A stretch of 64,000 bases of DNA from an uncultured Alphaproteobacteria bacterium (GCA_963821875.1 CAWGFE010000002.1:739643-803642), one strand, 5' to 3'. Shown: positions 7,188 through 60,241, numbered from the stretch's first letter. Numbers and translations: made by a program. Notes: generated by a model not told the origin, from the letters alone.

Positions 7188-7751
7188 ATGGTCAAGCTCA
7201 ACAAGATCTATACCCGCACGGGAGATTCAGGCGACACCGCCCTCGTTTCCGGCAGGCGCCGGGTCAAGCATGATCTGCGGGTCGACGCCTATGGCACCGT
7301 GGACGAAGCCAATGCGGTTATCGGCCTGGCGCGGCTGGAGTCCGAGGGCGCGATAGACGCGATCCTGTTTCGTGTCCAAAACGATCTTTTCGATCTCGGT
7401 GCGGATCTGGCGAACCCGGCTGATCCGGAAGCGTCGGATAGCGCGCTGCGGATCCTGTCTGCCCAGGTCGACCGGCTGGAACGGGAGATCGACGAGATCA
7501 ACGACACTCTCTCGCCTCTGACCTCCTTCGTGCTGCCCGGCGGCACGTCTCTCGCCGCCAGGCTTCATCTCGCCCGGACCGTCGTGCGCCGGGCCGAACG
7601 GCGCATGACCGCACTGGCGGCAAGCGAAGCGGTCAATCCCGAAGCAATCAAATATGTTAACCGTCTTTCGGACCTTCTCTTTGTCATGGCGCGGCACTGC
7701 AATGACGGCGGCGCCCGGGACGTTCTCTGGGTGCCCGGCGCAAATCGTTGA
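7188..7751 (+). CDS. ATP:cob(I)alamin adenosyltransferase, PduO type
   Basis: MVKLNKIYTRTGDSGDTAL...VDAYGTVDEANAVIGLAR...FVLPGG is the hallmark N-terminus of the PduO/MMAB family. 187 aa. Confidence 0.85.
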   Translation: MVKLNKIYTRTGDSGDTALVSGRRRVKHDLRVDAYGTVDEANAVIGLARLESEGAIDAILFRVQNDLFDLGADLANPADPEASDSALRILSAQVDRLEREIDEINDTLSPLTSFVLPGGTSLAARLHLARTVVRRAERRMTALAASEAVNPEAIKYVNRLSDLLFVMARHCNDGGARDVLWVPGANR

Positions 7752-8745: not shown

Positions 8746-9672
8746 ATGACAAGTCTCGTCATCGCCGAACATGACAACGCATCGCTGAAGGATGCGACGC
8801 TCAACACGGTCACGGCCGCTCAAAAGCTCGGCACGGACGTTCATATGCTGGTCGCCGGCTCGGACTGCGGCGCGGTGGCCGAGGCGGCCGCCGGGGTCGC
8901 CGGCGTCTCGAAGGTCCTCGTCGCCGACGCGCCGGACTACGCCCATCCCCTGGCCGAGGCGATCGCGCCGCTGATCGTCACGCTGGCGGGTGATTACGAT
9001 GCGGTTCTGGCGCCGTCCACGACGACCGGCAAGAACATCATGCCGCGTGTCGCGGCCTTGCTGGACGTCGCGCAGATCTCTGACATCATCGAGGTCATCT
9101 CGCCCGATACCTTCAAGCGGCCGATCTATGCCGGCAACGCCATCGCGACGGTCAAGACCAGCGATCCCAAAAAAGTGATCACCGTGCGCGCCACGGCGTT
9201 CGACAAGGCGGGTGACGGCGGTTCGGGCGAAATCCAGGCGATCGAGGGGGCGGCCGATCCCGGCATTTCCCGCTTCGTCGGTCAGGAATTGTCGAAATCC
9301 GAGCGGCCGGAATTGACCTCGGCGCGGATCATCGTCTCGGGCGGGCGCGGCATGGGCAGCGGCGAAAATTTCGCGTTGCTTGAAAAGGTTGCGGACAAAC
9401 TCAACGCGGCGATCGGCGCCAGCCGGGCCGCCGTGGACGCCGGTTTCGTGCCCAACGACTATCAGGTCGGCCAGACCGGAAAGATCGTTGCGCCGGAGCT
9501 TTATATCGCGGTCGGAATTTCCGGTGCGATCCAGCATCTCGCCGGGATGAAGGACAGTAAAGTCATCGTAGCGATCAACAAGGACGAGGAAGCGCCTATC
9601 TTCCAGGTTGCGGATTACGGTCTGGTGGCCGATCTTTTTAAGGCGCTGCCCGAATTGGCGGATGCACTGTAA
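8746..9672 (+). CDS. etfA: electron transfer flavoprotein alpha subunit
   Basis: [29 protein letters not shown]... and C-terminal FAD-binding region ([10 protein letters not shown]..., [37 protein letters not shown]). ATG at 8746 is in frame with ORF 8608..9672. Confidence 0.9.
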
Positions 9673-10598
9673 TGACCGACACAATGACGCTTGAACGGGG
9701 TGACAGCAAAAACGGAACGAAGCCTATGATCAAGACGATCGGAATCATCGGCGCCGGGCAAATGGGGAACGGCATCGCGCATGTCTGTGCCCTGGCTGGT
9801 TTCAAGGTCATTCTGTACGACATCGAACCCGAGGCCGTGAACAACGCGATCGAGCGGATCGACCACAATATGGAGCGGCAGGTCTCGCGCGGGATGATCC
9901 AGGAGGCCGATCACAAGGCGGCGATGGATCTGATCAGCGGCGGCGACAGCATGGAAGCCTTCGCCGACGCCGATCTCGTCGTCGAGGCCGCGGTCGAGAA
10001 CGAAGAGGTCAAGCGGCGGATCTTCCGGGAGCTCTGCCCGCATCTCAAACCCTCGGCGATCGTCGCGTCGAATACCTCTTCGATTTCCATCACTCGTCTC
10101 GCATCCACGACCGACCGGCCCGAAAAATTCATCGGCATGCATTTCATGAATCCGGTGCCGCTGATGCAGCTGGTGGAACTGATCCGCGGCATCGCAACGG
10201 GCGAGGACACCTTCAAGGTCATTCGCGAGGTCGTGATCAAGCTCGGCAAGACACCGGCCAACGCCGAAGACTTCCCGGCCTTTATCGTCAACCGCATCCT
10301 GCTGCCGATGATCAACGAAGCGATCTACACGCTCTATGAGGGCGTCGGCACGGTCGAGGCGATCGACACGGCCATGCGTCTCGGCGCCAATCATCCCATG
10401 GGACCGCTGCAACTCGCGGATTTCATCGGGCTGGACACCTGCCTGTCGGTGATGCAGGTGCTCTATGAGGGGCTCGCCGATTCCAAATACCGGCCCTGCC
10501 CGCTGCTGGTGAAATATGTCGAAGCCGGCTGGATCGGCCGCAAGGTCGGCCGCGGCTTCTACGATTATACGGGCGACGAACCGGTTCCGACGCGCTGA
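9672..10598 (+). CDS. hbd: 3-hydroxybutyryl-CoA dehydrogenase (3-hydroxyacyl-CoA dehydrogenase family)
   Basis: IGIIGAGQMGNGIAHVCALAGF NAD-binding motif plus 3HCDH C-domain. The ATG at 9672 overlaps the etfA stop (TAATG); an alternative start is at 9726 (MIKTIGIIGAG). Confidence 0.85.
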   Translation: MTDTMTLERGDSKNGTKPMIKTIGIIGAGQMGNGIAHVCALAGFKVILYDIEPEAVNNAIERIDHNMERQVSRGMIQEADHKAAMDLISGGDSMEAFADADLVVEAAVENEEVKRRIFRELCPHLKPSAIVASNTSSISITRLASTTDRPEKFIGMHFMNPVPLMQLVELIRGIATGEDTFKVIREVVIKLGKTPANAEDFPAFIVNRILLPMINEAIYTLYEGVGTVEAIDTAMRLGANHPMGPLQLADFIGLDTCLSVMQVLYEGLADSKYRPCPLLVKYVEAGWIGRKVGRGFYDYTGDEPVPTR

Positions 10599-17497: not shown

Positions 17498-18448
17498 TTA
17501 TTGCTGGGTGGAAACCGTATCGACTTCAAGGTAGCGCGCGTCCGCCGGTGGACTGGCGATCTTGATCGAGAAGGTCATTGTTTCGCCGGGCTGCAGGACC
17601 CGCTCCGGCAATTTATGAACCGTCTCGCTGAGCACCTTGTGATCGTCCCCGCTGAGCCGGGTGCGGACCTCCGGCACGGCAGCGGCGACCGTTCCCGAAT
17701 TGACCACCGTGCCGTTTACGACGCGGTAATCCGTGCCATCGATCGTTTCGGTCGAGGTGGTCACGGATTTGGTCTGGAACTGGGGTTTTACCTTGGCTTG
17801 CGGGGCCGGTTTCGGCGCTTCCGCGGAAGACATCGCCGGTTTCTCGATCGAGAGGCCAAGCGCGTTATAGAGCCGGGCGGCGGCCGGCCAGCCATCCACG
17901 ATCGATTGGCGGAAGAAAATAACGCCGCCGATGACGGCGACGACCAGAATACCGAGCACAGCCCAGCCGACGATCAGACCCGTAGAGGTTTTCTCTTCCT
18001 CGATCGGCTCCCTCTTGATCGCTGGACGGACCGGCGCTTCCTCGTCGCGCTTCGCGGTTATGTCCGGCGCGCTTCCCGGCTCGACCGGCGCTTCGTCCTT
18101 GTCGTCCGTCGATACGTCGATATCCGGCAGGGCCGGCCCCGCCGCATCCTCCGGCTCGGCGGTCTCTTCCGCCGTTTCGTCCGCACCGGCCTCGGGTTCG
18201 GCGGTCCATGGCGGCGTAGCGGCTTCGGCGGCGTCCGCCTGTTCCTCAACCGCCTCGGCGGGCGCCGCTTCCGGCTCGGGAGCCGGTTCGGGCGCGGCGG
18301 CGGTTTCCGCCGCGGTTTCCAGAGGAGTTTCGTCCGGATGACGCCATTTCGTGCCGCATTTTGAGCAGCGCACAGTTCGACCGGTCGCCGGTATGGCGGC
18401 GTCGGGAATCGTAAACCGCGTGGAACAGTTTGGACAGGAAATGATCAT
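17498..18448 (-). CDS. MJ0042-type zinc-ribbon domain protein with Pro/Glu/Ala-rich linker, TM helix and C-terminal DUF3426-like domain
   Basis: MIISCPNCSTRFTIPDAAIPATGRTVRCSKCGTKW has two CxxC pairs, followed by an acidic PEA-rich linker, a TM helix (LIVGWAVLGILVVAVIGGVIFF) and a C-terminal beta-rich domain. Divergent from ftsEX, as is common in alphaproteobacteria. Confidence 0.7.
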   Translation of the reverse strand: MIISCPNCSTRFTIPDAAIPATGRTVRCSKCGTKWRHPDETPLETAAETAAAPEPAPEPEAAPAEAVEEQADAAEAATPPWTAEPEAGADETAEETAEPEDAAGPALPDIDVSTDDKDEAPVEPGSAPDITAKRDEEAPVRPAIKREPIEEEKTSTGLIVGWAVLGILVVAVIGGVIFFRQSIVDGWPAAARLYNALGLSIEKPAMSSAEAPKPAPQAKVKPQFQTKSVTTSTETIDGTDYRVVNGTVVNSGTVAAAVPEVRTRLSGDDHKVLSETVHKLPERVLQPGETMTFSIKIASPPADARYLEVDTVSTQQ

Positions 18449-18679
18449 TCGGAGAGCCTATGATTAACGCCACTCTATAGAGCGATCCAGACCAAGGCAA
18501 GCCTTTCAAATGCCTAGTATTATTCGGTTTGCGAAGATGTCCCGAAATGGGATTTTCGCCGATCATGGTCTAGACGCGAGGGCGCGCCCTATGCGATTCT
18601 TTACGTCTTGGGAGCGGAACCGGCCGGGCCTCGTCGATGCCGGGAGCAAAACCGCGGCCGCAAATGAGGGCCAGACACC

Positions 18680-19489
18680 GTGATACGCTTCGAAAATGTG
18701 GGTGTGCGCTATGGCATGGGCGCCGAGGTTCTGCGCGACATCAATTTCGATCTGGAGCCCGGGTCCTTCCATTTTCTCACCGGGCCGAGCGGCGCCGGCA
18801 AGTCTTCCCTCCTCAAACTGATGTATCTCGCGATCAAGCCGTCGCGCGGCCTCATTTCCATGTTCGAGCGCGACGTGACCAAGGCCGAGCGTAAGGATTT
18901 GCCCGCGCTCCGGCGGCGCATCGGCGTGGTGTTTCAGGATTTCCGCCTGTTGCCGCATCTGACCGCGCTCGAAAATGTCGCGCTGCCGTTGCGGATCGCC
19001 GGCGCGCGGGAGGACCAGATTCGCGAGCACGTGGCAGAGCTTCTCGCCTGGGTCGGTCTCGCCGACCGGATCAATGCCCGGCCGCCGACCTTGTCCGGCG
19101 GCGAGCAGCAGCGGGTCGCCATCGCGCGGGCCGTCATCGCCCGGCCGAGCATCCTTCTGGCCGACGAGCCGACAGGAAACATCGATCCGAAAATGGGCGA
19201 ACGTCTTCTGCACCTCTTTGTCGAACTGAACAAGATCGGCACGACGATCGTGATCGCGACCCATGATTCCGGCCTCGCCGAACGGGTGAACGCGCCATTG
19301 CTGCAGATTGACAACGGCCGGCTCAATCACCTTCCCGCGCCCGCGCCGCATGAGCCAAAATTGCGGGTCGCCTACGGCAAGGGAGAGCGCCGCGCTCCGG
19401 CCCCGGAAAGCGCCAGCCCGGTCGAATCGGAAGAAGATCTGCTCGAAGAAACCGACGCCGGGTCCGGCGACAAGTCTCAACCGGATTGA
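18680..19489 (+). CDS. ftsE: cell division ABC transporter ATP-binding protein FtsE, with an acidic C-terminal extension of about 45 aa
   Basis: GTG start. MIRFENVGVRYGMGAEVLRDINFDLEPGSFHFLTGPSGAGKSSLLKL, LSGGEQQRVAIARA. The tail ...ESASPVESEEDLLEETDAGSGDKSQPD extends beyond the usual FtsE length. Confidence 0.9.
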   Translation: MIRFENVGVRYGMGAEVLRDINFDLEPGSFHFLTGPSGAGKSSLLKLMYLAIKPSRGLISMFERDVTKAERKDLPALRRRIGVVFQDFRLLPHLTALENVALPLRIAGAREDQIREHVAELLAWVGLADRINARPPTLSGGEQQRVAIARAVIARPSILLADEPTGNIDPKMGERLLHLFVELNKIGTTIVIATHDSGLAERVNAPLLQIDNGRLNHLPAPAPHEPKLRVAYGKGERRAPAPESASPVESEEDLLEETDAGSGDKSQPD

Positions 19490-19502
19490 CGGAACGGATG
19501 TC

Positions 19503-20384
19503 ATGAGCTTTTTGCGCGGCCCGATCGTTTACCTGGCGGACCATCCTTCGGGCCGGTTACTGCCTTGGGTGATCGCCGTCATGGCCTATCTCGCCGCGCT
19601 TGGCGTGGCGGGCGTGATCACGCTGGATCAGTCGGTCGCAAGTTGGCGCGCGTCCTTGTCTCACACAGTCACCGTTCAGATCACGGCGGGTGCGGAAACC
19701 GCGCGCGACACCGAGCGCGACGCCGTTGTGAAGCTGCTCAACAACACGCCCGGAATCGAAAGCGCCCTGCCGCTCAGCAAGGCCGAGGTCAAGAAACTGC
19801 TGGAGCCCTGGCTCGGCGCCGGGAATGTGACCGACGACCTGCCCATCCCGGCCCTCGTCGATGTGGTGCTCTCGCGCGACCGGGATGTCGATCTCGACGC
19901 CCTGTCGAAGAAAGTCACGGAAGTGGCGCCCGACGCCGTGCTCGATGATCACGGCGGCTGGCTCCAGCGCTTCATCGATCTGGCGCAGAATGTCCAGTAT
20001 CTGGCTGCGGGAATCGTGACCCTTGTCGGGCTTGCAACGGTCGCCATCGTCATCTTCGCGACGCGCGCGGGCATGGCGATCCATCACAACACGATCGAGA
20101 TCTTGCACCTCATCGGCGCGAAAGACAGTTTTATCGCTAGCCAGTTCCAGCGGCATTTCCTGTTGCTCGGCCTGAAGGGCGGCCTGATCGGTGTCAGCGT
20201 GGCCGTGCTCTCGCTTCTCGGCATTTCGCGCTTGTCGATCGGCATGGAGGATGCGTTCATTCCGAAATTCGGGTTTTCCCTCACGCTCGTGGCCGCGCTG
20301 GTGGCGCTGCCGCTTCTGGCAAGTCTGCTAACGATGCTGACGGCGCGCCGTACTGTGACCTCCGCGCTGGGCCGGATGGTCTGA
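19503..20384 (+). CDS. ftsX: cell division permease-like protein FtsX
   Basis: ATG at 19503, 14 nt after the ftsE stop. Four TM segments with a periplasmic loop after TM1 and the C-terminal FtsX topology (LTLVAALVALPLLASLLTML). Confidence 0.85.
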   Translation: MSFLRGPIVYLADHPSGRLLPWVIAVMAYLAALGVAGVITLDQSVASWRASLSHTVTVQITAGAETARDTERDAVVKLLNNTPGIESALPLSKAEVKKLLEPWLGAGNVTDDLPIPALVDVVLSRDRDVDLDALSKKVTEVAPDAVLDDHGGWLQRFIDLAQNVQYLAAGIVTLVGLATVAIVIFATRAGMAIHHNTIEILHLIGAKDSFIASQFQRHFLLLGLKGGLIGVSVAVLSLLGISRLSIGMEDAFIPKFGFSLTLVAALVALPLLASLLTMLTARRTVTSALGRMV

Positions 20385-20454
20385 CGATGGCGCGACTGGG
20401 GGGCGCAGCAGGGGCCGCAAGCGCCGGATCATCATCTGGACTCTGGCGCTGCTC

Positions 20455-21021
20455 GTGATCGCCTGGCTCGGCGGCTTTGTCTGGTTCACCGGCGCCCTGC
20501 CACGCAGCGAGCCGAACATCACCGACACCGATGGCGGCATCGTGGTGCTGACCGGCGGCGACCAGCGCTTGACGGCGGCGATGAGCCTGCTGGATCGCGG
20601 CTATGGCAAGCGGCTGCTCGTCACCGGCGTCAATCGCAAGATTGCGCGGGCCAAGCTCAAATCCTTCATGGGCAAGAGCGCGCCCGGTCTGTTCGACTGC
20701 TGCGTCGATCTCGGGCGTGAGGCCCAGGATACCATCGGAAATGCGCAGGAAACCGCGTCCTGGGTGGTCAGCCACGGCTACAAGTCGATCATCGTCGTCA
20801 CCGCCAGCTATCACATGCCGCGCGCGCTGGTCGAACTCAACTACGCGCTGCCCAACTGCAAATTCATTCCCTATCCGGTCTTTCCCGACAGCGTGCGGAT
20901 TTCCGATTGGTGGCGCTGGTCCGGCACCACCCGGCTCCTCGCCGTCGAATACACGAAATTCCTTGCGAGCAAGGCGCGGGTTACACTACTGCACGCCATT
21001 CTCGCAATTTCCGGATCCTGA
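20455..21021 (+). CDS. YdcF/DUF218 (ElyC/SanA-like) family protein; N-terminus probably extends upstream (see findings)
   Basis: GGIVVLTGGDQRLTAAMSLLDRGYGKRLLVTGVN...IIVVTASYHMPRA is the DUF218 core. The ORF-track start is a GTG inside a hydrophobic segment, and the same frame upstream reads RSRGRKRRIIIWTLALLVIAWLGG with no canonical start. Confidence 0.7.
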   Translation: MIAWLGGFVWFTGALPRSEPNITDTDGGIVVLTGGDQRLTAAMSLLDRGYGKRLLVTGVNRKIARAKLKSFMGKSAPGLFDCCVDLGREAQDTIGNAQETASWVVSHGYKSIIVVTASYHMPRALVELNYALPNCKFIPYPVFPDSVRISDWWRWSGTTRLLAVEYTKFLASKARVTLLHAILAISGS

Positions 21022-21026
21022 CGGGC

Positions 21027-21752
21027 ATGCTGCCGCTCCGCTCCGCGCTGTTCAATATCGCCTTCTATCTTTGGACCACCGTCATGGCGATCCTTTGGCT
21101 GCCCGCAATGTTCGGTCCCGCGATCTGGACCGTGCGCGGCCAGACGATCTGGGCGAAAGGCGTCATGGGGCTGTTGCGCGTTTTGACCGGCATCCACATC
21201 GAAATCCGCGGCCGGGAAAACCTGCCCGAGGGCGCGGCGCTCGTCGCGTCCAAGCATCAGTCCGCCTGGGACACGATCATCTTTCATATTCTGCTCGAGA
21301 ATCCGGCGGTCGTGCTCAAACAGGAGCTGCTCTGGATCCCGGTCTATGGCTGGTATGCCCGCAAGGTCCGGATGATCCCGATCGATCGCAGAGGCGGCTC
21401 GAGCGCGGTGCGCGGCATGATCCGCAGCGCGCGCGCTGCGGTCGAGGACAACCGGCCGATCGTGATCTTTCCCGAAGGCACGCGGGTGACGCCCGGCCAA
21501 CGCGCGCCGTATCGCCCGGGCATCGGCGGCCTCTACAGCCAGCTGGGCGTCGATGTGATCCCGGTGGCGTTGAATTCGGGGCTGTTCTGGCCGCGCCGGA
21601 GATTCATCCGCCGGCCCGGCACCATCGTTCTCGAATTTCTCCCCGCCATCGCGCCCGGCATGAAGCGGGCGGAATTCGTCGGCGCGCTCGAAGCCCGTCT
21701 GGAGCCGGCGACCGATGCTCTGATCGCCGAAGCGCAACGCGCCGGGAAATAA
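21027..21752 (+). CDS. plsC: 1-acyl-sn-glycerol-3-phosphate acyltransferase
   Basis: HQSAWDTIIF (HxxxxD acyltransferase motif), VIFPEGTR, and N-terminal TM MLPLRSALFNIAFYLWTTVMAILWL. ATG at 21027 follows the ydcF stop. Confidence 0.85.
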   Translation: MLPLRSALFNIAFYLWTTVMAILWLPAMFGPAIWTVRGQTIWAKGVMGLLRVLTGIHIEIRGRENLPEGAALVASKHQSAWDTIIFHILLENPAVVLKQELLWIPVYGWYARKVRMIPIDRRGGSSAVRGMIRSARAAVEDNRPIVIFPEGTRVTPGQRAPYRPGIGGLYSQLGVDVIPVALNSGLFWPRRRFIRRPGTIVLEFLPAIAPGMKRAEFVGALEARLEPATDALIAEAQRAGK

Positions 21753-21760
21753 CAATTTTC

Positions 21761-21868
21761 TGTGGATAATCGATCTATCCGGCCGATATTGAGGATAACT
21801 GTGGCTCACTCCCTTGTGGATTCTGGGGATAACTCGGATAAAGTTGTATATTCAAGGCCCTATCCATC
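21761..21868. promoter_or_regulatory. cluster of about 8 DnaA-box-like motifs (TGTGGATAA / GGATAA family) upstream of nrdJ
   Basis: TGTGGATAA at 21761-21769 is a perfect reverse complement of TTATCCACA. Other copies: ctatcc, gaGGATAAc, TGTGGctca, TGTGGATtc, gGGGATAAc, cGGATAAag, cTATCCAtc, all within about 110 bp of unusually AT-rich sequence. Confidence 0.4.
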
Positions 21869-21913
21869 ACGAACTGGTGTATGCTATAGGGAAACATATA
21901 GAGAACAAATACT

Positions 21914-21942
21914 TTGCGTCTGGGGCCTCTGCGGCGTAAAAT
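21914..21942 (+). promoter_or_regulatory. sigma70-like promoter candidate for nrdJ (TTGCGT-N17-TAAAAT)
   Basis: TTGCGT at 21914-21919, a 17-nt spacer, then TAAAAT at 21937-21942, about 70 nt upstream of the nrdJ ATG. Confidence 0.3.
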
Positions 21943-22010
21943 TTGCGCCCCCAGGACAATGCGGACCAGCTGGCCGCGTGACGTAAGAACCGATTTTCGG
22001 GACCTGTTTC

Positions 22011-24335
22011 ATGTCGAGTTTGACGACCATATCCCAGCAGATCTGGGACATGAAATATCGCCTCAAAGGCGCCGACGGTACGCCGGTCGACGGAACGATC
22101 GACGATAGCTGGCGCCGGGTGGCGGCCGCGCTGGCGGAGCCCGAGGACGAGTCGGTGCGCGCCGGGTGGCAAGAGAAGTTCTACGAGGCCATGGCCGATT
22201 TCCGGTTTCTACCGGCCGGGCGGATTCTGGCCGGCGCGGGCACCGGCCGTCAGGTCACGCTGTTCAACTGCTTCGTCATGGGCACGGTCCCGGACGATAT
22301 GTCGGGAATTTTCGAGAATCTCAAGGAAGCCGCGCTGACCATGCAGCAGGGCGGCGGCATCGGTTACGATTTCTCGACGCTCAGGCCCAAGGGCGCGACG
22401 GTGAAAGGCGTCGGCGCGGACGCGTCGGGGCCTTTGTCCTTCATGGATGTGTGGGATGCGATGTGCCGCACCATCATGAGCGCGGGCCATCGCCGGGGCG
22501 CCATGATGGCGACGATGCGCTGCGACCATCCCGACATCGAGGCCTTTATCGAGGCCAAGCGGGATCCCGGCCGGCTGCGCATGTTCAATCTGTCGGTGCT
22601 GGTGACCGACGCTTTCATCGAGGCGGTGAAGGCGGACGAATCGTGGCAACTCGAATTCGGCGGCACGGTTTACAGGACCATGCAGGCGCGCGAGTTGTGG
22701 GACAAGATCATGCGCGCGACCTACGCCTATGCCGAACCGGGCGTGATCTTCATCGATCGCATCAACGAGCAGAACAATCTCCATTACTGCGAGACGATCA
22801 ACGCCACCAATCCGTGCGGCGAACAGCCCCTGCCGCCCTATGGGGCATGCCTGCTGGGCTCGATCAATCTCGCCCGACTCGTCACGTCGCCGTTCACGGA
22901 GGACGCGGCGATCGATGAAGCGGAACTTGCCGATCTGGTCCGCGTCGCCGTCCGCATGATGGACAATGTGATCGACGTCTCGCGCTTCCCGCTCGACGCT
23001 CAGGCTCAGGAGGCGCAGGCCAAGCGGCGTATCGGGCTCGGCGTGACCGGGCTGGCGGATGCTTTGATTCTGTGCCGGTTGCGCTACGGCAGCGCGCCCG
23101 CGCTGAAAAAGACCGAGGAGTGGATGGAAGCGATCCGCCGCGCGGCCTATCTGGCCTCGGCCGAGATCGCGCGCGAAAAAGGCGCGTTCCCGCTTTACGA
23201 TGCCGACGCCTATCTCGCAGCGCCGATGGTCGCGTCCCTTGGGGAGGACGCGAAAACCGCGATCCGCGAGCACGGCATCCGCAATTCCCTGCTCACCTCG
23301 ATCGCGCCGACCGGCACGATTTCGCTTCTCGCCGACAACGTCTCATCCGGCCTCGAGCCCGTCTTCAGCTTCACCTATACCCGCAAGGTATTGATGCCCG
23401 ACGGCGCCCGTCGGGAGGAAGAGGTCTCGGATTACGCCTATCGGCTCTATAAGAAGAAATTCGGCGAGAATGCCGAGCTACCGGATTACTTCGTCTCGGC
23501 CATGACGCTCGCGCCGGAGGATCATGTGCTGATGCAGGCCGCCGTGCAGAAGCATATCGACAGTTCGATCTCCAAGACCATCAACTGCCCCGAAGACATT
23601 ACCTTCGAGGATTTCAGCAATGTCTATCTCCTCGCCTATGAGAAGGGCTGCAAGGGCTGCACGACCTATCGTCCGAACGAGGTAACGGGCTCGGTGCTGG
23701 AGGCGAAACCGGAACGCGCGGAAGCCGAGCCGGAGCTGCCGCTGGATTCGCCGAAGGCGAAGCCCGAGGATGTCTACGAGGCGGGCGGCGTGGTTTATCT
23801 CACCCAGCCGCTCGACCGGCCGGGCGTGCTGCCGGGCAAGACCTACAAGGTCCGCTGGCCGGATTCCGATCACGCCATGTATATCACCATCAACGACGTG
23901 ATTCAGGACGGCCGCCGCCGGCCCTTCGAGGTGTTCATCAACTCGAAGAACATGGAGCATTTCGCCTGGACGGTCGCGCTCACCCGCATGATCAGCGCGG
24001 TGTTCCGGCGCGGCGGCGACGTGTCCTTCGTGGTCGAGGAATTGAAGGCGGTGTTCGATCCGCGCGGCGGACGCTGGGTGGACGGCCATTACGTGCCGTC
24101 GATCCTGGCGGCGATCGGCGAGGTGATCGAAAAGCATCTGATCGAGATCGGCTTCGTCGCCGATCCGGAAGAAGACATGCCGCTGGCCGAGACGCGTCGG
24201 AAGATTGTGGTCGGCGACGACCGCGAGGTCGGCGATCCCCGGCTGCGCGCCTGCCCGAAATGCAGCGCGCCGGCGCTGGTGCGTCAGGAGGGTTGCGACA
24301 CCTGCATCAATTGCGGCTATTCGAAGTGCGGATAA
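22011..24335 (+). CDS. nrdJ: class II (adenosylcobalamin-dependent) ribonucleotide reductase
   Basis: 774 aa. NPCGEQPLPPYGACLLGSINLARLV active-site motif, and C-terminal CPKCSAPALVRQEGCDTCINCGYSKCG zinc-ribbon typical of NrdJ. Confidence 0.9.
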   Translation: MSSLTTISQQIWDMKYRLKGADGTPVDGTIDDSWRRVAAALAEPEDESVRAGWQEKFYEAMADFRFLPAGRILAGAGTGRQVTLFNCFVMGTVPDDMSGIFENLKEAALTMQQGGGIGYDFSTLRPKGATVKGVGADASGPLSFMDVWDAMCRTIMSAGHRRGAMMATMRCDHPDIEAFIEAKRDPGRLRMFNLSVLVTDAFIEAVKADESWQLEFGGTVYRTMQARELWDKIMRATYAYAEPGVIFIDRINEQNNLHYCETINATNPCGEQPLPPYGACLLGSINLARLVTSPFTEDAAIDEAELADLVRVAVRMMDNVIDVSRFPLDAQAQEAQAKRRIGLGVTGLADALILCRLRYGSAPALKKTEEWMEAIRRAAYLASAEIAREKGAFPLYDADAYLAAPMVASLGEDAKTAIREHGIRNSLLTSIAPTGTISLLADNVSSGLEPVFSFTYTRKVLMPDGARREEEVSDYAYRLYKKKFGENAELPDYFVSAMTLAPEDHVLMQAAVQKHIDSSISKTINCPEDITFEDFSNVYLLAYEKGCKGCTTYRPNEVTGSVLEAKPERAEAEPELPLDSPKAKPEDVYEAGGVVYLTQPLDRPGVLPGKTYKVRWPDSDHAMYITINDVIQDGRRRPFEVFINSKNMEHFAWTVALTRMISAVFRRGGDVSFVVEELKAVFDPRGGRWVDGHYVPSILAAIGEVIEKHLIEIGFVADPEEDMPLAETRRKIVVGDDREVGDPRLRACPKCSAPALVRQEGCDTCINCGYSKCG

Positions 24336-24441
24336 TTGCCGCATGACGGCGCAGTGTTAGCGCTTCTTTAAAGGCCGGTCGGGCAAAAGAGAGGTTGCAC
24401 TTTATACGCACCACCCCTTCTGCCAAGGATCCATAATAAAA

Positions 24442-25779
24442 ATGAGTGACTCGACCTCCGGTATGAAATCCCGGCTGGATTTCTTCGGTCTCGACAGCGC
24501 GTCCAAACCCGGTCTTCAACGATTCGGATCAACGCTTGGCCCGCATCTTCCTGAAATTCTTGACGGCTTCTATCGCCATGTCACGAGCCGCCCCGATCTT
24601 GCCGCCAAGATCGGCGATCAGACCGACCGGCTGAAACGCGCCCAGATTTCCCATTGGGAAACGCTCATGTCCGGTGCCCTCGATGATGATTATTACGAGC
24701 GCGCCCGGAAGGTCGGCCAGGCGCATCAGCGCATCGGGCTGGAGCCCGGCCTGTTCATCGGCGGCTATGCCTATGTCGTCGACCGGATGCTGAAGGTGGC
24801 TCTGAGCGAGGATCCCGCCATGGCGGACATGCTGTCCTCGGCCATGAAGGCGATCATGCTGGATATCGATCTCTCGATCTCGGTCTATCTCGAGGAGGCC
24901 GAGCAGGTCCGCGAGACGGAGCATCGCGAGATCGCCGACAGGCTCGAAAGCCGGATCGGCAACGTCACCGACGCCGTCGTCAAGCAGAGCGCGTTGATGA
25001 ATGACGTCGTCGCCGCGCTCGACAAGGCGGTTGCGGCGGTCGGCACAAAGTCGACGTCGGTCGCCGGCGCGTCGGATCAGGCGACGCAGAATGTCGAGGC
25101 GGTCTCAGCCGCCGTCGAGGAGTTGAGCGCGTCGGTCCGCGAAATCGGCCGGCGGGCCGAACAGTCGTCGCAGATCGCGCGGACCGCGGTCGATGCCGCC
25201 GATCACTCCAACACGGTCATTCAGGGCCTGTCGCAATATGCCGGCGAGGTCGACGCCATCGTCAAGACGATTTCCGAAATCGCCGCCCAGACCAATCTTC
25301 TGGCGCTTAACGCGACGATCGAGGCGGCGCGGGCCGGCGAGCTCGGCAAGGGCTTCGCCGTCGTGGCCTCCGAGGTCAAGGCGCTCGCCAATCAGACCTC
25401 CAAGGCGACCAAGACGATCGGCGACCAGATCGGCAAGATCACCAATTCCGTCGAAGAGGCCGCCAAGGCGATCGACATGATCGGCGTCGTCATCAAGGAA
25501 ACGGAGAAGAACTCCACGGCCGCCAGCGAAGCCGTCGACGAACAGGCCATGGCCACCAACGAGATCAGCACCAATATCAGCCAGACAGCGGAACGCGTGC
25601 GCGGCGTGCGCGACGATATCAGCGCGGTCGCGACCGAGACGCAGGGCATGAGCGAGATGTCCAACCGCGTCCGGTCGTCCTGTGATGAGCTGGCCAAGAT
25701 CTCCGATCAACTCGACGCCGCCGTGAAGGACGTCGTGTCGTCCCTGCGCGGATCCGGCAAGGCGAAGACCGCAGCCTGA
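24442..25779 (+). CDS. soluble globin-coupled sensor with methyl-accepting chemotaxis signalling domain (HemAT-like)
   Basis: N-terminal protoglobin/sensor-globin domain (RLDFFGLDSASKPGLQRFGSTLGPHLPEILDGFYRHVT..., AHQRIGLEPGLFIGGY) with no TM helices. C-terminal MCP signalling domain (QTNLLALNATIEAARAGELGKGFAVVASEVKALANQT). Confidence 0.8.
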   Translation: MSDSTSGMKSRLDFFGLDSASKPGLQRFGSTLGPHLPEILDGFYRHVTSRPDLAAKIGDQTDRLKRAQISHWETLMSGALDDDYYERARKVGQAHQRIGLEPGLFIGGYAYVVDRMLKVALSEDPAMADMLSSAMKAIMLDIDLSISVYLEEAEQVRETEHREIADRLESRIGNVTDAVVKQSALMNDVVAALDKAVAAVGTKSTSVAGASDQATQNVEAVSAAVEELSASVREIGRRAEQSSQIARTAVDAADHSNTVIQGLSQYAGEVDAIVKTISEIAAQTNLLALNATIEAARAGELGKGFAVVASEVKALANQTSKATKTIGDQIGKITNSVEEAAKAIDMIGVVIKETEKNSTAASEAVDEQAMATNEISTNISQTAERVRGVRDDISAVATETQGMSEMSNRVRSSCDELAKISDQLDAAVKDVVSSLRGSGKAKTAA

Positions 25780-25794
25780 CGCCTCCCGAGGCTA

Positions 25795-26400
25795 TTATAT
25801 CGGCCGGCGGGCCTTGAGCGCGGCGGCGATGGTGCCGTCGTCGAGATAATCGAGTTCGCCGCCGACGGGAACGCCATGTGCGATCCCCGAGACCTTCACC
25901 GCGTCATTGGCGAGATGGTCCATGATGTAATGGGCGGTGGTCTGACCCTCGACCGTAGCATTGGTGGCCAGCACGATTTCCTTGACCTCGCCGTTTCGCG
26001 CCCGCTCGATGAGTTTCGGAATGTTGAGATCGCCGGGCCCGACGCCGTCGAGCGCCGAGAGCGTGCCGCCAAGAACGTGATAACGGCCCGCGAAAGCGCC
26101 GGTACGTTCCAGCGCCCACAGATCCGCGACTTCCTCGACCACGCAGATCAGGCCCGCATCGCGCCGGGGATCGGTGCAGATCGTGCAAGGGTCCGTGGTG
26201 TCGAGATTGCCGCAGGTGCTGCAGGCATGAACCGTGCGGGCGGTTTCCGTCAGCGCGCGGGCCAGAGGCTCCATCACGGAATCCCGGCGCTTGAGCAGAT
26301 GCAGAACGGCGCGGCGCGCCGATCGCGGTCCCAGCCCCGGCAGTTTCGCCAGAAGCTGGATCAGGCGTTCGATCTCCGTGCCCGTTCCCCGGGTGGTCAT
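25795..26400 (-). CDS. recR: recombination protein RecR
   Basis: 201 aa from [31 protein letters not shown]4 zinc finger [18 protein letters not shown], Toprim domain. The ORF-track entry 25795..26760 fuses it with the downstream ybaB frame region. Confidence 0.9.
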
Positions 26401-26423
26401 TGTCTGGTGAAAATCCCGCCGGC

Positions 26424-26747
26424 CTAGAACGGCAGCGACATGCCCGGCGGCAGTTGCAGCCCGCCGGTGACCTTCGCCATCTCGTCCTGAACAAAGGCTT
26501 CGAGCTTGACCTTGGCGTCGTGATGGGCGGCGACGATGAGGTCTTCCAGGATCTCTGCGTCCTTCGGGTCGATCAGTGAGGGATCGATCTTGATCCCCTT
26601 CATCTCGCCCTTGCCGTTCAACGTGCATGTCACCATGCCGCCGCCGGATACTCCCGAGATCTCGGATTCGCCCAGGCGCTCCTGCATCTCGGCCATCTTG
26701 GACTGGAATTCCTGTGCCTGTTTGAGCATCTGACCAATATTTTTCAT
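26424..26747 (-). CDS. ybaB: nucleoid-associated protein YbaB/EbfC
   Basis: 107 aa: [25 protein letters not shown]...[40 protein letters not shown]. Conserved dnaX-ybaB-recR order. Confidence 0.9.
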
Positions 26748-26823
26748 ACGCGCTCTTCAACTCCTCTCGAATTCGGCGATATGTCGGTACGGCACGGCGG
26801 ACGGCGCGTCCAGGGGGTGCGTA

Positions 26824-28512
26824 TCACTCCTTGCGGACCGCCGTGATCTCCGCACCCGGAAAATTCTCGAGCACCGTCTTGACCAGCGGATCGCGCAGCG
26901 CCTGCTCGCGGATCTCGTTTTCCCGGGCCAGTTGTCGCTCGCGCAGGGTAGGCTCGCCGAGGTCCTGCGTCACGCTCACCACCCAGCGCTCGCCGGTCCA
27001 GGCCTTCATCTTGTCCCCGATCTGGAACGCCAGATTCGCCGGCGCCTTGTCCTCGATCCGAACTTCCAGCTGACCGTGGGAGAACCGCACCAGATGCACA
27101 TGGTCGATCAGGTGGGTGTGGAGAATCATCTCGCGCTTTTCCTCGAACAGCGCGACCAGTTCGGCGAAGCTCGTCGGCGCGGATGCGAGTTCCTCGTCCG
27201 TCGCCGGCTGAGGCGAGGCCATCGCGCGGGCCGTGCCGGCCGAGCCGCTCGCCGTGCTGAAGCTCGACCGCGCCACCGGTTCGCGGGCGGCGCTGGCGGG
27301 CGCATCCCGGCGCGGCGGTGTGGCGGACGCGTCGCGCTGCTCGTCCAGCTTCCGCACCAGATCGGCGGGATCGGGAAGTTCGGCGGAGAAGGCGAGTCGC
27401 ACCAACGCCATTTCCGCCGCCGCATCGGGCGAGGGCGCGCGGCGCGCTTCATCGAGCCCCTTGAGCAGGATCTGCCAGCTGCGGGTCAGCACCGGCATCG
27501 ACAGTTTGGCGGCAAAGTCGCGGCCCTTCACGCGCTCGGTTTCGCCCATAGCCATGTCCTCGCCGGCATCCGGCGCGAGTTTCAGGCGGGTCAGCCAATG
27601 GGTGAGATTCAAGAGATCCTCGAGGATCACGGTGGGATCCGCGCCGAGCCGGTATTGCTCGCGCATGATTTCCAGCGCCGATGCGATCTCGCCGGACATC
27701 ACGGCTTCGAACAGATCGAACATGCGTGCCCGGTCGGCCAGGCCCAGCATGTCGCGCACGCGCTCCTCGGTCACCTCGCCCGCGCCGTGGGCCAGCGCCT
27801 GCTCCAGCAGCGACTGCGCGTCGCGCACTGAGCCGTCGGCGGCGCGTGCGATCAGGCCGAAGGCGGCGTCCTCCACCGAGACGTTTTCCTTCTCGGTGAT
27901 CATGCGCAGATTGTCGATCAGCACGGGGATCTCGACGCGCCGCAGGTCGAATCGCTGGCAGCGCGAGAGCACCGTCACCGGCACCTTGCGGATTTCCGTG
28001 GTGGCGAAGATGAAGCGGACATGTTCCGGCGGCTCTTCGAGCGTTTTGAGAAGCGCGTTGAACGCGTTCTTCGAGAGCATATGCACTTCGTCGACGATGT
28101 AGATCTTCTCGCGTGCGGCGACCGGCGCATAGCGTACGCCGTCGATGATCTCGCGGATATCGTCGACACCGGTGCGGCTCGCGGCGTCCATTTCCATCAC
28201 ATCGACATGGCGCGACTCTGCGATCGCCACGCAATGGGTGCAGACGCCGCAGGGCTCGATCGTGGGGCCACCCTTGCCGTCCGGGCCGATGCAATTGAGG
28301 GCGCGGGCGATCAGACGCGCGGTCGTCGTCTTGCCGACGCCGCGCACGCCGGTGAGGATGAAAGCATGGGCCAGCCGCCCCGAACGGATCGCGTTCGACA
28401 GCGTGCGCACCATGGCGTCCTGGCCATAAAGCTCGGCGAAGGTCGTCGGCCGGTATTTGCGCGCGATAACGCGATAGCCACCGGCCGCTTTCTCCGTCCC
28501 GGCGTCGGTCAT
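26824..28512 (-). CDS. dnaX: DNA polymerase III subunits gamma/tau
   Basis: YRVIARKYRPTTFAELYGQDAMVRTLSNAIRSGRLAHAFILTGVRGVGKTTTARLIARALNC..., AAA+ clamp-loader motifs, and C4 zinc module CGVCTHC. Confidence 0.9.
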   Translation of the reverse strand: MTDAGTEKAAGGYRVIARKYRPTTFAELYGQDAMVRTLSNAIRSGRLAHAFILTGVRGVGKTTTARLIARALNCIGPDGKGGPTIEPCGVCTHCVAIAESRHVDVMEMDAASRTGVDDIREIIDGVRYAPVAAREKIYIVDEVHMLSKNAFNALLKTLEEPPEHVRFIFATTEIRKVPVTVLSRCQRFDLRRVEIPVLIDNLRMITEKENVSVEDAAFGLIARAADGSVRDAQSLLEQALAHGAGEVTEERVRDMLGLADRARMFDLFEAVMSGEIASALEIMREQYRLGADPTVILEDLLNLTHWLTRLKLAPDAGEDMAMGETERVKGRDFAAKLSMPVLTRSWQILLKGLDEARRAPSPDAAAEMALVRLAFSAELPDPADLVRKLDEQRDASATPPRRDAPASAAREPVARSSFSTASGSAGTARAMASPQPATDEELASAPTSFAELVALFEEKREMILHTHLIDHVHLVRFSHGQLEVRIEDKAPANLAFQIGDKMKAWTGERWVVSVTQDLGEPTLRERQLARENEIREQALRDPLVKTVLENFPGAEITAVRKE

Positions 28513-28581
28513 CGTGTTACCCCTTTTGGGTTTCGCTGTCCCTTTCGGGTTCCCATAAGCCTCCGAACTGTCCGGCCCATT

Positions 28582-28641
28582 GAACGATCACGATGCAAAC
28601 GATCACGATGCGAACGGTCACGACGTGAACGACAACGACTT
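28582..28641. repeat. imperfect 15-bp tandem repeat, four copies, between the ffs 3' end and the dnaX start
   Basis: gaacgatcacgatgc / aaacgatcacgatgc / gaacggtcacgacgt / gaacgacaacgactt, contiguous. The + strand ORF 28580..28789 (DHDANDHDANGHDVND) is the translation artefact of this repeat. Confidence 0.6.
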
Positions 28642-28665
28642 GCCGGCGGCCGATCGAGCGAAGAT

Positions 28666-28772
28666 CGGTGGGAGGTTGGACAGGCGACCCGAGCAGAACT
28701 CGTTACGGCTGCTTCCTTCCGGATCTGACCGGGTTGGCGAGGGGCTCGTCCGCCGCCAACCTCCCGGCCCTA
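28666..28772 (-). ncRNA. ffs: signal recognition particle RNA (4.5S / SRP RNA, small bacterial type)
   Basis: The minus strand reads GGGCCGGGAGGUUGGCGGCGGACGAGCCCCUCGCCAACCCGGUCAGAUCCGGAAGGAAGCAGCCGUAACGAG...CCAACCUCCCACC. It contains the universally conserved domain IV motif GGUCAGAUCCGGAAGGAAGCAGCC, and the 5' GGGAGGUUGG pairs with the 3' CCAACCUCCC. ffs sits immediately upstream of dnaX, as in many bacteria. Ends are approximate to within 5 nt. Confidence 0.75.
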
Positions 28773-57037: not shown

Positions 57038-58087
57038 TCAGTGCGAAGCCGCCGTTTCCGTCTGGCGGCGGGTTTCCATCATGCGGTCGAACTTGGTCCA
57101 GGCGCTTTCTTCGCCGTGCCAGGAGCCGCGGGTGGCGGCCTTGGAATATTCGGTCGCGCGAGCCTCGAAGAAATTCGCGTGCTCGACGCCGTTCAGGATT
57201 TCGGTCAGCCACGGCAGCGGATGGGTCTTCACATCGTAGATCGTCGGCAGTTCGAGCTGGTTCAGCCGCCAGTCGGCGACATAACGGATGTAGTTCTTGA
57301 TGTCGTCCGGCGTCATGCCCTCGACGGGGCCGAGGCCGAAAGCAAGATCGATGAACTTGTCCTCCAGGCCGACGACCGTCTTGCAGCAATCGATGATGTC
57401 GTCCTTGACAGACTGGCTGAGCGCACCGGTCTCCTTGGCGAAAGTGTGGAACAGCTTGATCATGCCTTCGCAGTGCATGCTCTCGTCGCGCACCGACCAG
57501 GACACGATCTGACCCATGCCCTTCATCTTGTTGTGGCGCGGGAAATTCAGGAGCATCGCGAAGCTCGCGAATAGCTGCAGGCCTTCCGTGAAGCCGCCGA
57601 ACATGGCGAGCGTGCGCAGGATATCGGCGTGAGAATCGACGCCGAATTCCTGCATATAGGAATGCTTGTCCGCCATTTCCTTGTATTCGAGGAAGGCGAC
57701 GAATTCGGAATCCGGCATGCCGATGGTCTCGAGCAGAAGCGCATAGGCGGCGATATGGATTGTCTCGATATTCGAGAACGCCGCCAGCATCATCTTCACT
57801 TCGGTGGGTTTGAAGACGCGGGCATAGCGCTCCATGTAGTTGTCGTTCACCTCGACATCGGACTGGGTGAAGAAGCGGAAGATCTGGGTGAGCAGATTGC
57901 GCTCGGAATCGCTCAGGCGTCCCGCCCAGTCCTTGCAGTCATCGCCCAGCGGCACCTCTTCCGGCAGCCAGTGCACCTGCTGCTGGCGTTTCCAGAGGTC
58001 ATAGGCCCAGGGATAGCGGAACGGCTTGTAGCTGTGCCGCGGCGTGAGAAGGCCGATGGTTCCGGGAGGGTCGATGAGGGCGTTCAT
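57038..58087 (-). CDS. nrdB: class I ribonucleotide reductase beta (R2) subunit
   Basis: Di-iron ligands and tyrosyl radical region (EVNDNYMERY..., ...ETIHIAAYALL..., SVRDESMHCEGM), 349 aa. Confidence 0.9.
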   Translation of the reverse strand: MNALIDPPGTIGLLTPRHSYKPFRYPWAYDLWKRQQQVHWLPEEVPLGDDCKDWAGRLSDSERNLLTQIFRFFTQSDVEVNDNYMERYARVFKPTEVKMMLAAFSNIETIHIAAYALLLETIGMPDSEFVAFLEYKEMADKHSYMQEFGVDSHADILRTLAMFGGFTEGLQLFASFAMLLNFPRHNKMKGMGQIVSWSVRDESMHCEGMIKLFHTFAKETGALSQSVKDDIIDCCKTVVGLEDKFIDLAFGLGPVEGMTPDDIKNYIRYVADWRLNQLELPTIYDVKTHPLPWLTEILNGVEHANFFEARATEYSKAATRGSWHGEESAWTKFDRMMETRRQTETAASH

Positions 58088-58128
58088 GAGTCTCTCTGAG
58101 GCTGGAGCGGCGGCTTACTGGCAGGCCC

Positions 58129-60027
58129 CTATTGGCAGGCCAGGCATTCTTCGTAGTCGGTCGGCGCGGAGACCAGCGGCTTGGTCGGCAGCACCCGGGT
58201 GTTGTCTGCCTCCACGCCCGCGAAGGACGCGCGCTGCACCGATTTGGAGCGGCAGTAATAGAGGCTCTTTACGCCGAGCTCCCAAGCCTTCCAATGCAGC
58301 ATCATCAGGTCCCATTTGTCGACGTCGCCGGGCAGGAACAGGTTGATCGACTGGCCCTGGCAGACATAGGGCGTGCGGTCGGCGGCCAATTCGACGATCC
58401 AGCGCTGGTCGATTTCGAAAGCCGTGCGATAGCAGGCCTTCTCGTCGTCCGAAAGGCCGTCGAGATGCTGGACCGAGCCCTCGTGCTGAAGGACCGAATG
58501 CCAGATCTCCGGCGTGTCCATGCCCTTTTCGGCCAGCAGGTTCTGGAGATGCGGGTTCTTCACCGTGAACGAGCCCGACAGAGTCTTGTGCGTATAGACA
58601 TTGGCCGGGATCGGCTCGACGCAGGGGCTGGTGCCGCCGCAGATGATGCTGATCGAGGCGGTCGGCGCGATCGCCATTTTGTGGCTGAACCGGGCCTTCA
58701 CGCCGCGTTCCTCGGCGTCGGGGCACGGGCCACGCTCTTCGGCCAGCGTGACCGAGGCGGCATCCGCGCCGGCGCGGATATGCTTGAACAGCCGGATGTT
58801 CCAGGCCTTGGCGACGGCGCTCTCGAACGGAATGCCCTGGCTTTGCAGGAAGGAATGGAAGCCCATGAGACCGAGACCCACCGAGCGCTCCCGCGTTGCC
58901 GAATAGACCGCGTTGGCCATGCTCTCCGGCGCGGTGTCGATGAAGGACTGGAGCACGTTGTCGAGGAACCGCATGATGTCCTCGACGAACATCGGGTCGT
59001 CCTTCCACTCGAAATATTTCTCGGCGTTGATCGAGGACAGGCAGCACACGGCGGTGCGCCTGTGGCCCAGATGATCCTTGCCGGTATGCAGCATGATCTC
59101 GCTGCAGAGATTGGAGGTGGTGACCTTCAGGCCGAGATCGCGCTGATGCTTGGCCATGCGGCTGTTCACCGTATCGGCGAAGATCAGATAAGGCTCGCCG
59201 GTCTGCAGCCGGGTCTCGAGAATCTTCTGCCACAGCTCGCGGGCATTCACATAACGCCGGATCTCGCCGTTCTTGGGGCTCTTGAGCGCGAACGGCTTGT
59301 CGTCGCGCACGGCCTCCATGAATTCGTCGGTAATGTTGATGCCGTGATGGAGATTGAGGCTCTTGCGGTTGAAATCGCCGGACGGCTTGCGGATCTCGAG
59401 GAATTCCTCGATCTCGGGATGATAGACATCGAGATAGACCGCCGCCGAGCCGCGCCGCAGCGAGCCCTGGCTGATCGCCAGCGTGAGGGAATCCATCACG
59501 CGCACGAAGGGAATGATGCCGGAGGTTTCGCCGGCCCCCTTCACCTTCTCGCCGATCGAGCGGACCTGGCCCCAATAGGTGCCGATGCCGCCGCCGTTCG
59601 AGGCGAGCCAGACATTTTCGTTCCAGGTGCCGACGATGCCGTCGAGATCGTCCGACACCGCATTGAGGAAGCAGGAGATCGGCAGGCCGCGCTTGGTGCC
59701 GCCATTGGAGAGCACCGGCGTCGCCGGCATGAACCACAGCCGGGACATGTAATCGTAAATACGCTGCGCATGAGCCTGATCGTCCGCATAGGCCTTGGCG
59801 ACGCGGGCGAACATGTCCTGATAGGATTCGTCCGGCAGCAGATAGCGGTCTCGCAGCGTCGTCTTGCCGAATTCGGTCAGCAGCGCGTCGCGCCGCCGGT
59901 CGATGCGGACCTCTCGCGGCACCACCTTGACGGGTGCGGGCTTCTGAACTGGCTGGGTTGTTTTTGGTTGGATATCCGCGACGGTAGCCGTCGGGTGAAG
60001 AGTAAGCGACTCACTCGCAGTGGCCAT
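58129..60027 (-). CDS. nrdA: class I ribonucleotide reductase alpha (R1) subunit, short form without ATP-cone
   Basis: ...PISCFLNAVSDDLDG..., NLCSEIML (active-site Cys), C-terminal YEECLACQ redox tail. The ATG at 60027 (MATASESL) is taken as the start; the upstream portion of the ORF track is probably leader. Confidence 0.9.
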   Translation of the reverse strand: MATASESLTLHPTATVADIQPKTTQPVQKPAPVKVVPREVRIDRRRDALLTEFGKTTLRDRYLLPDESYQDMFARVAKAYADDQAHAQRIYDYMSRLWFMPATPVLSNGGTKRGLPISCFLNAVSDDLDGIVGTWNENVWLASNGGGIGTYWGQVRSIGEKVKGAGETSGIIPFVRVMDSLTLAISQGSLRRGSAAVYLDVYHPEIEEFLEIRKPSGDFNRKSLNLHHGINITDEFMEAVRDDKPFALKSPKNGEIRRYVNARELWQKILETRLQTGEPYLIFADTVNSRMAKHQRDLGLKVTTSNLCSEIMLHTGKDHLGHRRTAVCCLSSINAEKYFEWKDDPMFVEDIMRFLDNVLQSFIDTAPESMANAVYSATRERSVGLGLMGFHSFLQSQGIPFESAVAKAWNIRLFKHIRAGADAASVTLAEERGPCPDAEERGVKARFSHKMAIAPTASISIICGGTSPCVEPIPANVYTHKTLSGSFTVKNPHLQNLLAEKGMDTPEIWHSVLQHEGSVQHLDGLSDDEKACYRTAFEIDQRWIVELAADRTPYVCQGQSINLFLPGDVDKWDLMMLHWKAWELGVKSLYYCRSKSVQRASFAGVEADNTRVLPTKPLVSAPTDYEECLACQ

Positions 60028-60241
60028 GACGAAACTTTCCCGTTCCTCCGCCCGAACCGCTCTCATACCGGTCCGATTTGTTGCCCTCGCGCCGCCCCCG
60101 GCGCATTCTCTCCCCAAACTCCAGGCAAAACTTCCCCGTCCGGCCGGAGCCGGTTTTTCGCCTTAAAATTGTGGGTTTCAGCCCGTTTTGGAGTTTAGTC
60201 CCTTGTCCACCGCCCACATGTAGAATGCCCAATAGCGGTGA

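Follow-up and report, generated by a model that had tools for sequence, protein, structure and literature searches.

The closest described systems are the ribonucleotide reductase (RNR) operons nrdAB and nrdDG of Escherichia coli. ChIP-seq and mutagenesis have shown that E. coli DnaA needs a double box, composed of two boxes in the same orientation and 2-3 bp apart (Stringer et al. 2024, PMC11317965). The protein was found bound upstream of nrdA, at such a double box, and upstream of nrdD (PMC11317965). According to the papers cited in PMC3193534, DnaA activates E. coli nrdAB at low occupancy and represses it at high DnaA-ATP; Olliver et al. 2010 and Gon et al. 2006 are the works cited there on DnaA at nrdAB and nrdDG. 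Among the alphaproteobacteria, DnaA of Caulobacter directly controls and activates nrdB (PMC3193534). The DnaA regulon of Caulobacter crescentus comprises nrdB, gcrA, ftsZ, podJ and hdaA, with one to six boxes at variable positions (PMC3193534). The alphaproteobacterial LexA operator is a direct repeat of the form GTTC-N7-GTTC / GAAC-N7-GAAC (PMC3323433, PMC4211646). In the literature searched, with some older key papers outside the search, we found no paper linking DnaA or LexA to nrdJ and no description of nrdJ as an SOS gene.

In this study, we analyzed the spacer of 258 bp (21753-22010) between an acyltransferase gene and nrdJ in the window, which is the whole stretch of 64,000 nucleotides from an uncultured Alphaproteobacteria bacterium. 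We consider it likely, on the motif evidence set out below, that DnaA controls the promoter of nrdJ, to which LexA probably provides a further input. The predicted arrangement resembles E. coli nrdAB and nrdDG in having DnaA boxes upstream of an RNR promoter, by which the initiator would be coupled to dNTP synthesis, and the relatives of the nrdJ locus share with these operons the pairs of same-orientation boxes with a 3-bp gap. The differences are that the target here is a class II (B12-dependent) RNR, that the boxes lie ~70-150 bp upstream of the -35 element whereas they adjoin it in E. coli, that the boxes in the window are packed at 9-10 bp, that no NrdR box accompanies them, and that a LexA-format site is found at the promoter. 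The likeness to Caulobacter is that of an alphaproteobacterial DnaA serving as transcription factor on an RNR gene, here as a prediction; the target in Caulobacter is the class I gene nrdB, and here it is the class II gene nrdJ. The 11-bp direct repeat, the GAACA half-sites and a high score with a lexA matrix are shared with alphaproteobacterial LexA operators, and the site in the window falls within the 7-of-8 criterion used for Caulobacter LexA. It differs from LexA operators in that the left half-site at nrdJ is AAAC in most loci and that the site is located upstream of the -35 element.

The assignment of the downstream gene as a B12-dependent nrdJ, made in the preliminary description, stands. 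The gene starts with the ATG at 22011, and its product is a class II RNR in which Pfam recognizes the all-alpha and barrel domains of RNR and a TSCPD domain; the source annotation of the NrdJ homologues is adenosylcobalamin-dependent RNR. Several close NrdJ homologues (P0021, P0029, P0034, P0042 and P0106) are ~1,145 aa long with intein/LAGLIDADG domains (PF14528, PF14890); the NrdJ of the window is without intein. The genes at 17498-28764 are arrayed in the order DUF3426 zinc-ribbon protein, ftsE, ftsX, DUF218, acyltransferase, nrdJ, protoglobin-MCP (HemAT-like), recR, ybaB, dnaX and SRP RNA. This order is also kept in two close relatives (L081 and L082), so that cell-division and replication genes surround nrdJ in a conserved gene order, and the part ftsE-ftsX-DUF218-acyltransferase-nrdJ is common among related loci. 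Two B12-linked genes are found near, one encoding the C-terminal, B12-binding part of methylmalonyl-CoA mutase (519-1403) and the other a PduO-type cobalamin adenosyltransferase (7188-7751). The dnaX gene of the window is a single ORF of 562 aa. In L081, a 90% relative, dnaX at 9572-10322 is present as two ORFs, one of 405 aa and one of 134 aa carrying DUF3646; a frameshift, a misassembly or a true split could account for this.

Table 1. Candidate regulatory sites of the nrdJ spacer and the flanking genes, with positions in the window.
Feature	Coordinates	Strand	Sequence	Remarks
Acyltransferase gene	20907-21752	+		PF01553 (Pfam)
DnaA box 1	21761-21769	-	TTATCCACA (+ strand TGTGGATAA)	perfect, 0 mismatches
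DnaA box 2	21790-21798	-	TTATCCTCA (+ strand TGAGGATAA)	1 mismatch
DnaA-like 9-mer (box 3)	21800-21808	-	TGAGCCACA (+ strand TGTGGCTCA)	2 mismatches
DnaA box 4	21815-21823	-	GAATCCACA (+ strand TGTGGATTC)	2 mismatches
DnaA box 5	21824-21832	-	TTATCCCCA (+ strand TGGGGATAA)	1 mismatch
Weak DnaA-like site	21834-21842	-	TTATCCGAG (+ strand CTCGGATAA)	3 mismatches, by eye
Weak DnaA-like site	21861-21869	opposite to the others	CTATCCATC (+ strand reading)	3 mismatches, by eye
Direct repeat	21892-21909	+	AAACATATAGAGAACA (21892-21907), scored as the 18-mer AAACATATAGAGAACAAA	alphaproteobacterial LexA-operator format
Sigma-70-type promoter	21914-21942	+	TTGCGT (21914-21919), 17-bp spacer, TAAAAT (21937-21942)	conserved in close relatives
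nrdJ	22011-24335	+		class II adenosylcobalamin-dependent ribonucleotide reductase, 774 aa; PF02867, PF00317, PF12637

Mismatches of the DnaA boxes were counted against the 9-mer consensus TTATCCACA. All five sites with ≤2 mismatches (21761-21832) have a single shared orientation. Box 1, which begins 9 bp past the stop codon of the acyltransferase gene, is the perfect box claimed beforehand, being an exact match on the minus strand. Box 4 abuts box 5 directly, and the start of the weak site at 21834-21842 is 10 bp downstream from that of box 5. The spacing of the boxes in the window is thus 9-10 bp start to start, with gaps of 0-1 bp, compared with 11-12 bp in canonical double boxes. The patch containing the cluster (21753-21870) has a G+C content of 44%, and 200-bp windows around it have 48-50% (minimum about 48%), against ~63% in the whole 64-kb window. 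The AT-rich setting was therefore correctly described, as was the position of the cluster at 141-250 bp upstream of the nrdJ ATG. The perfect box was said to be accompanied by about seven more variants; this number holds if the sites with 3 mismatches are counted, and otherwise it does not, and box 3 among them is probably a chance match.

A total of seven matches with ≤1 mismatch were found in 64 kb, three of them within a stretch of 72 bp in this array, which is the densest 120-bp cluster of boxes in the window. None of 20,000 dinucleotide-preserving shuffles of 21753-21870 contained the three boxes with ≤1 mismatch that are observed, and in the same shuffles the chance of five or more boxes with ≤2 mismatches was 5e-5, which bears out the dense DnaA-box cluster of the preliminary description. 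A second, weak cluster of boxes (61489-61578) falls within the ORF of a transporter and was discarded as chance.

We further collected 80 nrdJ loci of other alphaproteobacteria by means of the NrdJ protein (67-76% identity, one genome per species), mostly from Rhodospirillales-like MAGs and some from Rhodobacterales. Boxes with ≤1 mismatch numbered 77 in the 34.4 kb upstream of nrdJ and 56 in the remaining 681 kb, and the density in the 450 bp upstream of nrdJ is ~27-fold above the rest of the 80 loci. Between -300 and -50 of nrdJ, there are 3.6 boxes per kb, compared with 0.28 per kb in other stretches of ≤50% G+C from the same loci, which is ~13-fold higher; like the shuffles, this puts the box density far above AT-rich background. 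The 25.8 kb of lexA upstream DNA used as a control contain no box with ≤1 mismatch. At least one box is present in 48 of 76 loci, and a box with ≤1 mismatch is lacking from roughly one in three orthologous loci. The commonest 8-mers upstream of nrdJ, TGTGGATA, GTGGATAA and CTGTGGAT, occur in 28-30 regions, 70- to 124-fold above expectation, and the enrichment applies to the full 9-mer together with its usual preceding C, CTGTGGATAA. In the loci that also carry a promoter-proximal motif, the direct repeat described below, 53 of 60 boxes are oriented toward nrdJ, and most boxes are located 55-135 bp upstream of that motif. The candidate sites are thus real, above chance, and conserved in position and orientation across many alphaproteobacteria.

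Among the same-orientation pairs in these loci, a start-to-start distance of 12 bp stands out sharply: 19 pairs have it, and every other spacing has 1-4. This double-box geometry lends independent support to DnaA as the protein that would bind there. Exact 12-bp pairs (3-bp gap) are found in L004, L006, L009, L012, L013, L019, L023 and others, L029, L039, L041, L047 and L052 among them; in the lineage of the window the boxes stand at 9-10 bp instead. L013 is from Paramagnetospirillum marisnigri and L041 from Skermanella aerolata, and both combine the double box with the direct repeat described below. Most relatives have one or two boxes, and the window has five to six. Boxes persist in loci without the upstream acyltransferase gene (L003, L012, L020, L025 and L044), which indicates that the boxes belong to nrdJ. 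Three Rhodobacterales loci (L075, L077 and L080) possess boxes, including 11-12-bp pairs, upstream of nrdJ in the opposite orientation and without the LexA-format motif.

Sequence alignment of the window with five close relatives (L081-L085, 88-99% NrdJ identity) shows that the spacer has diverged, with a mean column identity of 69%. At 88-90% NrdJ identity, where the remaining spacer has diverged, the repeat motif and the promoter are kept together with boxes 2, 4 and 5. Conservation of the boxes is found upstream of nrdJ orthologues both distant and close. Boxes 2, 4 and 5 form the conserved core of the array, and two of the conserved boxes of the window deviate from the consensus. Four relatives have the block of box 2, TTGAGGATAA, without change, and L084 has TTGGGGAAAA in its place. 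For box 4, three relatives keep TTGTGGATT and the other two have TGTGAATT and TGTGAGTT, and box 5, GGGGATAA, is invariant in all six sequences. Box 1 is identical in L085, reads GGTGGATAT in L081 and L083, and is lost in L082 and L084. Box 3 shows no conservation outside the 99% relative in this alignment. The weak site at 21834-21842 is partly conserved, as TCGGA(A/T)A or TCGAATA.

Sites that manage DnaA on the chromosome include datA, DARS1 and DARS2 of E. coli and the DnaA-box clusters of B. subtilis. The array could be a site of this kind, acting by titration or by a change of nucleotide state, with its location at a promoter incidental. We regard this explanation as unlikely, since the boxes track nrdJ across orders and through changes of the upstream gene, and since the single or double box of most relatives is too few for titration. 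The five to six packed, same-orientation boxes of the window, against one or two in most relatives, would fit such a site, as would the long stretch that separates the array from the -35 element. The DARS sites of E. coli also lie upstream of repair genes, DARS1 at uvrB and DARS2 at mutH (PMC11317965). However, the DNA from the boxes to the promoter shows only mild AT-richness, and no element of the IHF or Fis type recurs there at a fixed position. A role in DnaA management is moreover compatible with a transcriptional role, and both may coexist.

It is very unlikely that the GGATAA and TGTGGAT words are sites of another transcription factor or have arisen by chance in AT-rich intergenic DNA. 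Several sites of the window share only the GGATAA core, and their assignment to DnaA is made from the sequence. Chance is excluded by the composition-matched shuffles and the AT-rich control DNA, and the enrichment of a full 9-mer with its preceding C, together with a pair spacing of 12 bp that matches a property measured for DnaA, argues against a different factor.

A second conserved operator, of LexA format and located between the boxes and the -35 element, was lacking from the preliminary description. It is a direct repeat with a period of 11 bp, lying 6 bp upstream of the -35 element, with GAACA-type half-sites and an A at the second spacer position. Its core AAAC-N7-GAAC agrees with GAAC-N7-GAAC at 7/8 bases, and no other RAACA-N6-RAACA occurs in the window. 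The repeat is kept in the close relatives. Across the 80 nrdJ loci and the window, 49 of 81 sequences carry the motif directly before the -35 element, with the consensus tGTGGAAACAtAaCrrGAACATTt followed by TTGACC-N17-CTAnAnT; elsewhere in ~780 kb there are two weak matches only. The left half-site is AAAC and not GAAC in most nrdJ loci, and a perfect GAACA-N6-GAACA is present in some relatives, e.g. L006, L033 and L038.

The repeat was compared with operators of lexA itself. A tblastn search of plasmids with E. coli LexA gave no useful matches to alphaproteobacterial lexA, and 80 lexA loci were obtained from metagenomes with another LexA sequence as the query (tblastn identities up to 81%). 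The operator cTTGCG-GAACAcAtAtgGAACAtATAG (TTGCG-GAACA-N6-GAACA) is present between -35 and -10 in all 77 lexA loci examined, and a matrix was constructed from 75 of these 77 autoregulatory operators. With this matrix, the site at 21892-21909 scores 18.1 bits, the highest in the 64 kb on both strands, the next best being 11.6. Forward matches of ≥12 bits upstream of nrdJ occur in 38 loci, where 0.0026 are expected per 300 bp. The repeat at nrdJ ends 1-6 bp upstream of the -35 element, whereas lexA operators sit between -35 and -10.

In many loci, the conserved tGTGG before the AAACA half-site creates TGTGGAAAC, which resembles a DnaA box and shares bases with the distal half-site of the LexA-format repeat. 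Such loci include L002, L014, L040, L042 and L064, where the box lies just upstream of the nrdJ -35 element; the window reads TAGGGAAAC at this position and has no overlapping DnaA-like box. The overlap with TGTGGAAAC might explain why AAAC and not GAAC is conserved.

The promoter candidate TTGCGT-N17-TAAAAT, already proposed in the first description at the same position, is conserved in the relatives and is the counterpart of TTGACC-N17-CTAnAnT, which distant loci have behind the repeat motif. This joint conservation of repeat motif and promoter supports the candidate. A consensus promoter scanner did not call it at 21914-21942, and conservation was used instead. We infer a transcription start near 21949. 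Neither an Rfam search over the whole window nor a permissive one of 21700-22100 revealed any riboswitch, such as one for cobalamin, or any leader RNA, even at an E-value of 1. A G+C-rich inverted repeat is present around the -10 element (21920-21957), with GGCG-TAAAATTTG-CGCC within CTGGGG...CCCCAG, and L081 has GGGG...CCCC at this position; it might be another operator or be meaningless.

The boxes could also serve as a DnaA roadblock against read-through from the ftsEX-DUF218-acyltransferase operon into nrdJ, with no part in promoter control. The + strand shows no intrinsic terminator behind the acyltransferase gene, box 1 begins 9 bp past the stop codon of that gene, and the orientation of the boxes is strongly conserved, all of which a roadblock would accommodate. 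We regard this as very unlikely, since the boxes persist where the upstream gene differs and a strong conserved promoter lies downstream; a roadblock could also coexist with promoter control.

Two further kinds of regulators were searched for and rejected. The 16-bp palindromic NrdR box has no match with ≤5 mismatches in 21753-22010, and across the 80 related loci only six matches, all weak, were found upstream of nrdJ. NrdR control of nrdJ was rejected because the leader is without a box and boxes are rare in relatives. The CtrA box TTAA-N7-TTAA is absent from the nrdJ spacer, which has no TTAA at all, and the single GANTC of the region, at 21819 inside box 4, is unconserved in close relatives; CtrA or GcrA-CcrM control was rejected for these reasons. 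The suggestion that DnaA or a GcrA/CtrA-type factor acts on nrdJ is retained in part: box density and conservation favor DnaA as the predicted factor, and GcrA or CtrA receive no support.

The window also encodes a class I RNR operon on the minus strand (57038-60257), with nrdA at 58129-60117 and nrdB at 57038-58087, 36 kb apart from nrdJ. An NrdR box with 1 mismatch, ACACAAGATATAGTGT, is located upstream of nrdAB at 60242-60257, and no second box was found there at the usual offset of 31-32 bp. NrdR-controlled RNR operons concern the same enzyme family, and since nrdAB of the window has an NrdR box and the nrdJ leader has none, the two RNR classes appear to use different regulators.

A replication origin at this place, chromosomal or secondary, is scarcely credible, even though same-orientation DnaA boxes cluster in a fairly AT-rich spacer, and was rejected, in agreement with the first reading, because there is no GC-skew switch around 21.8 kb, the flanking genes run co-directionally through the spacer (ftsE-ftsX-DUF218-acyltransferase, then nrdJ), the spacer of just 258 bp is mostly occupied by the conserved promoter and leader, neither a strongly AT-rich unwinding element nor a repeated 13-mer is seen near the boxes, a CtrA site is absent, no dnaA, hemE or other origin-linked gene is among the scanned ORFs (Pfam, about half of the likely genes of the window), and relatives keep one or two boxes only.

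Control of the nrdJ promoter by DnaA, with a probable LexA input, remains the preferred reading. The spacer is predicted to be the regulatory region of nrdJ, composed of three putative parts: the DnaA-box array, the LexA-format repeat and the sigma-70 promoter. DnaA and LexA are the predicted binding proteins, on the grounds of motif identity and geometry. DnaA would oligomerize on the upstream array (21761-21842), ~105-190 bp upstream of the putative transcription start, and DnaA-ATP would be the likelier form because several of the sites are weak and closely packed. The bound DnaA may then modulate initiation at the conserved sigma-70 promoter, and the synthesis of class II RNR would track the replication-initiation potential of the cell. 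A LexA-type protein beside the -35 element would probably add a DNA-damage (SOS) input. As for the sign of the DnaA control, activation at low occupancy is our guess by analogy. The array lies 72-153 bp upstream of the -35 element, so that contact with polymerase would need DNA bending or spreading of the oligomer. This distance and the 9-10 bp spacing are the features that fit the model least.

A broader joint reading, which we hold to be rather unlikely, is that class II RNR left the NrdR regulon in a large Rhodospirillales-like clade and was wired to a DnaA oligomer and to LexA at a non-canonical position. DnaA and LexA would then compete or cooperate on shared DNA in many lineages, which the overlap of the distal LexA half-site with the DnaA-like box TGTGGAAAC makes possible, and the array of five to six boxes in lineages like that of the window would also titrate or recycle DnaA. 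If this were true, the enlarged array would feed dNTP supply back onto initiation.

DnaA boxes before RNR genes are a known theme, and the main claim will not surprise a specialist. DnaA control of RNR is established for classes I and III in E. coli and for nrdB in Caulobacter, and the locus described here would extend it to class II; the probable LexA input at this class II RNR promoter, itself under putative DnaA control, is apparently undescribed. The link between DnaA and nrdJ seems to be old and widespread in the alphaproteobacteria, as dozens of mostly uncultured lineages display the same orientation and often the same double-box geometry. These findings favor a DnaA regulon in which the supply of nucleotides is a core and conserved part. 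Judging by the LexA-format operator, the SOS response of these bacteria may include class II RNR. Compared with nrdAB and its NrdR box, nrdJ would thus place two RNR classes of one genome under different regulatory logic.
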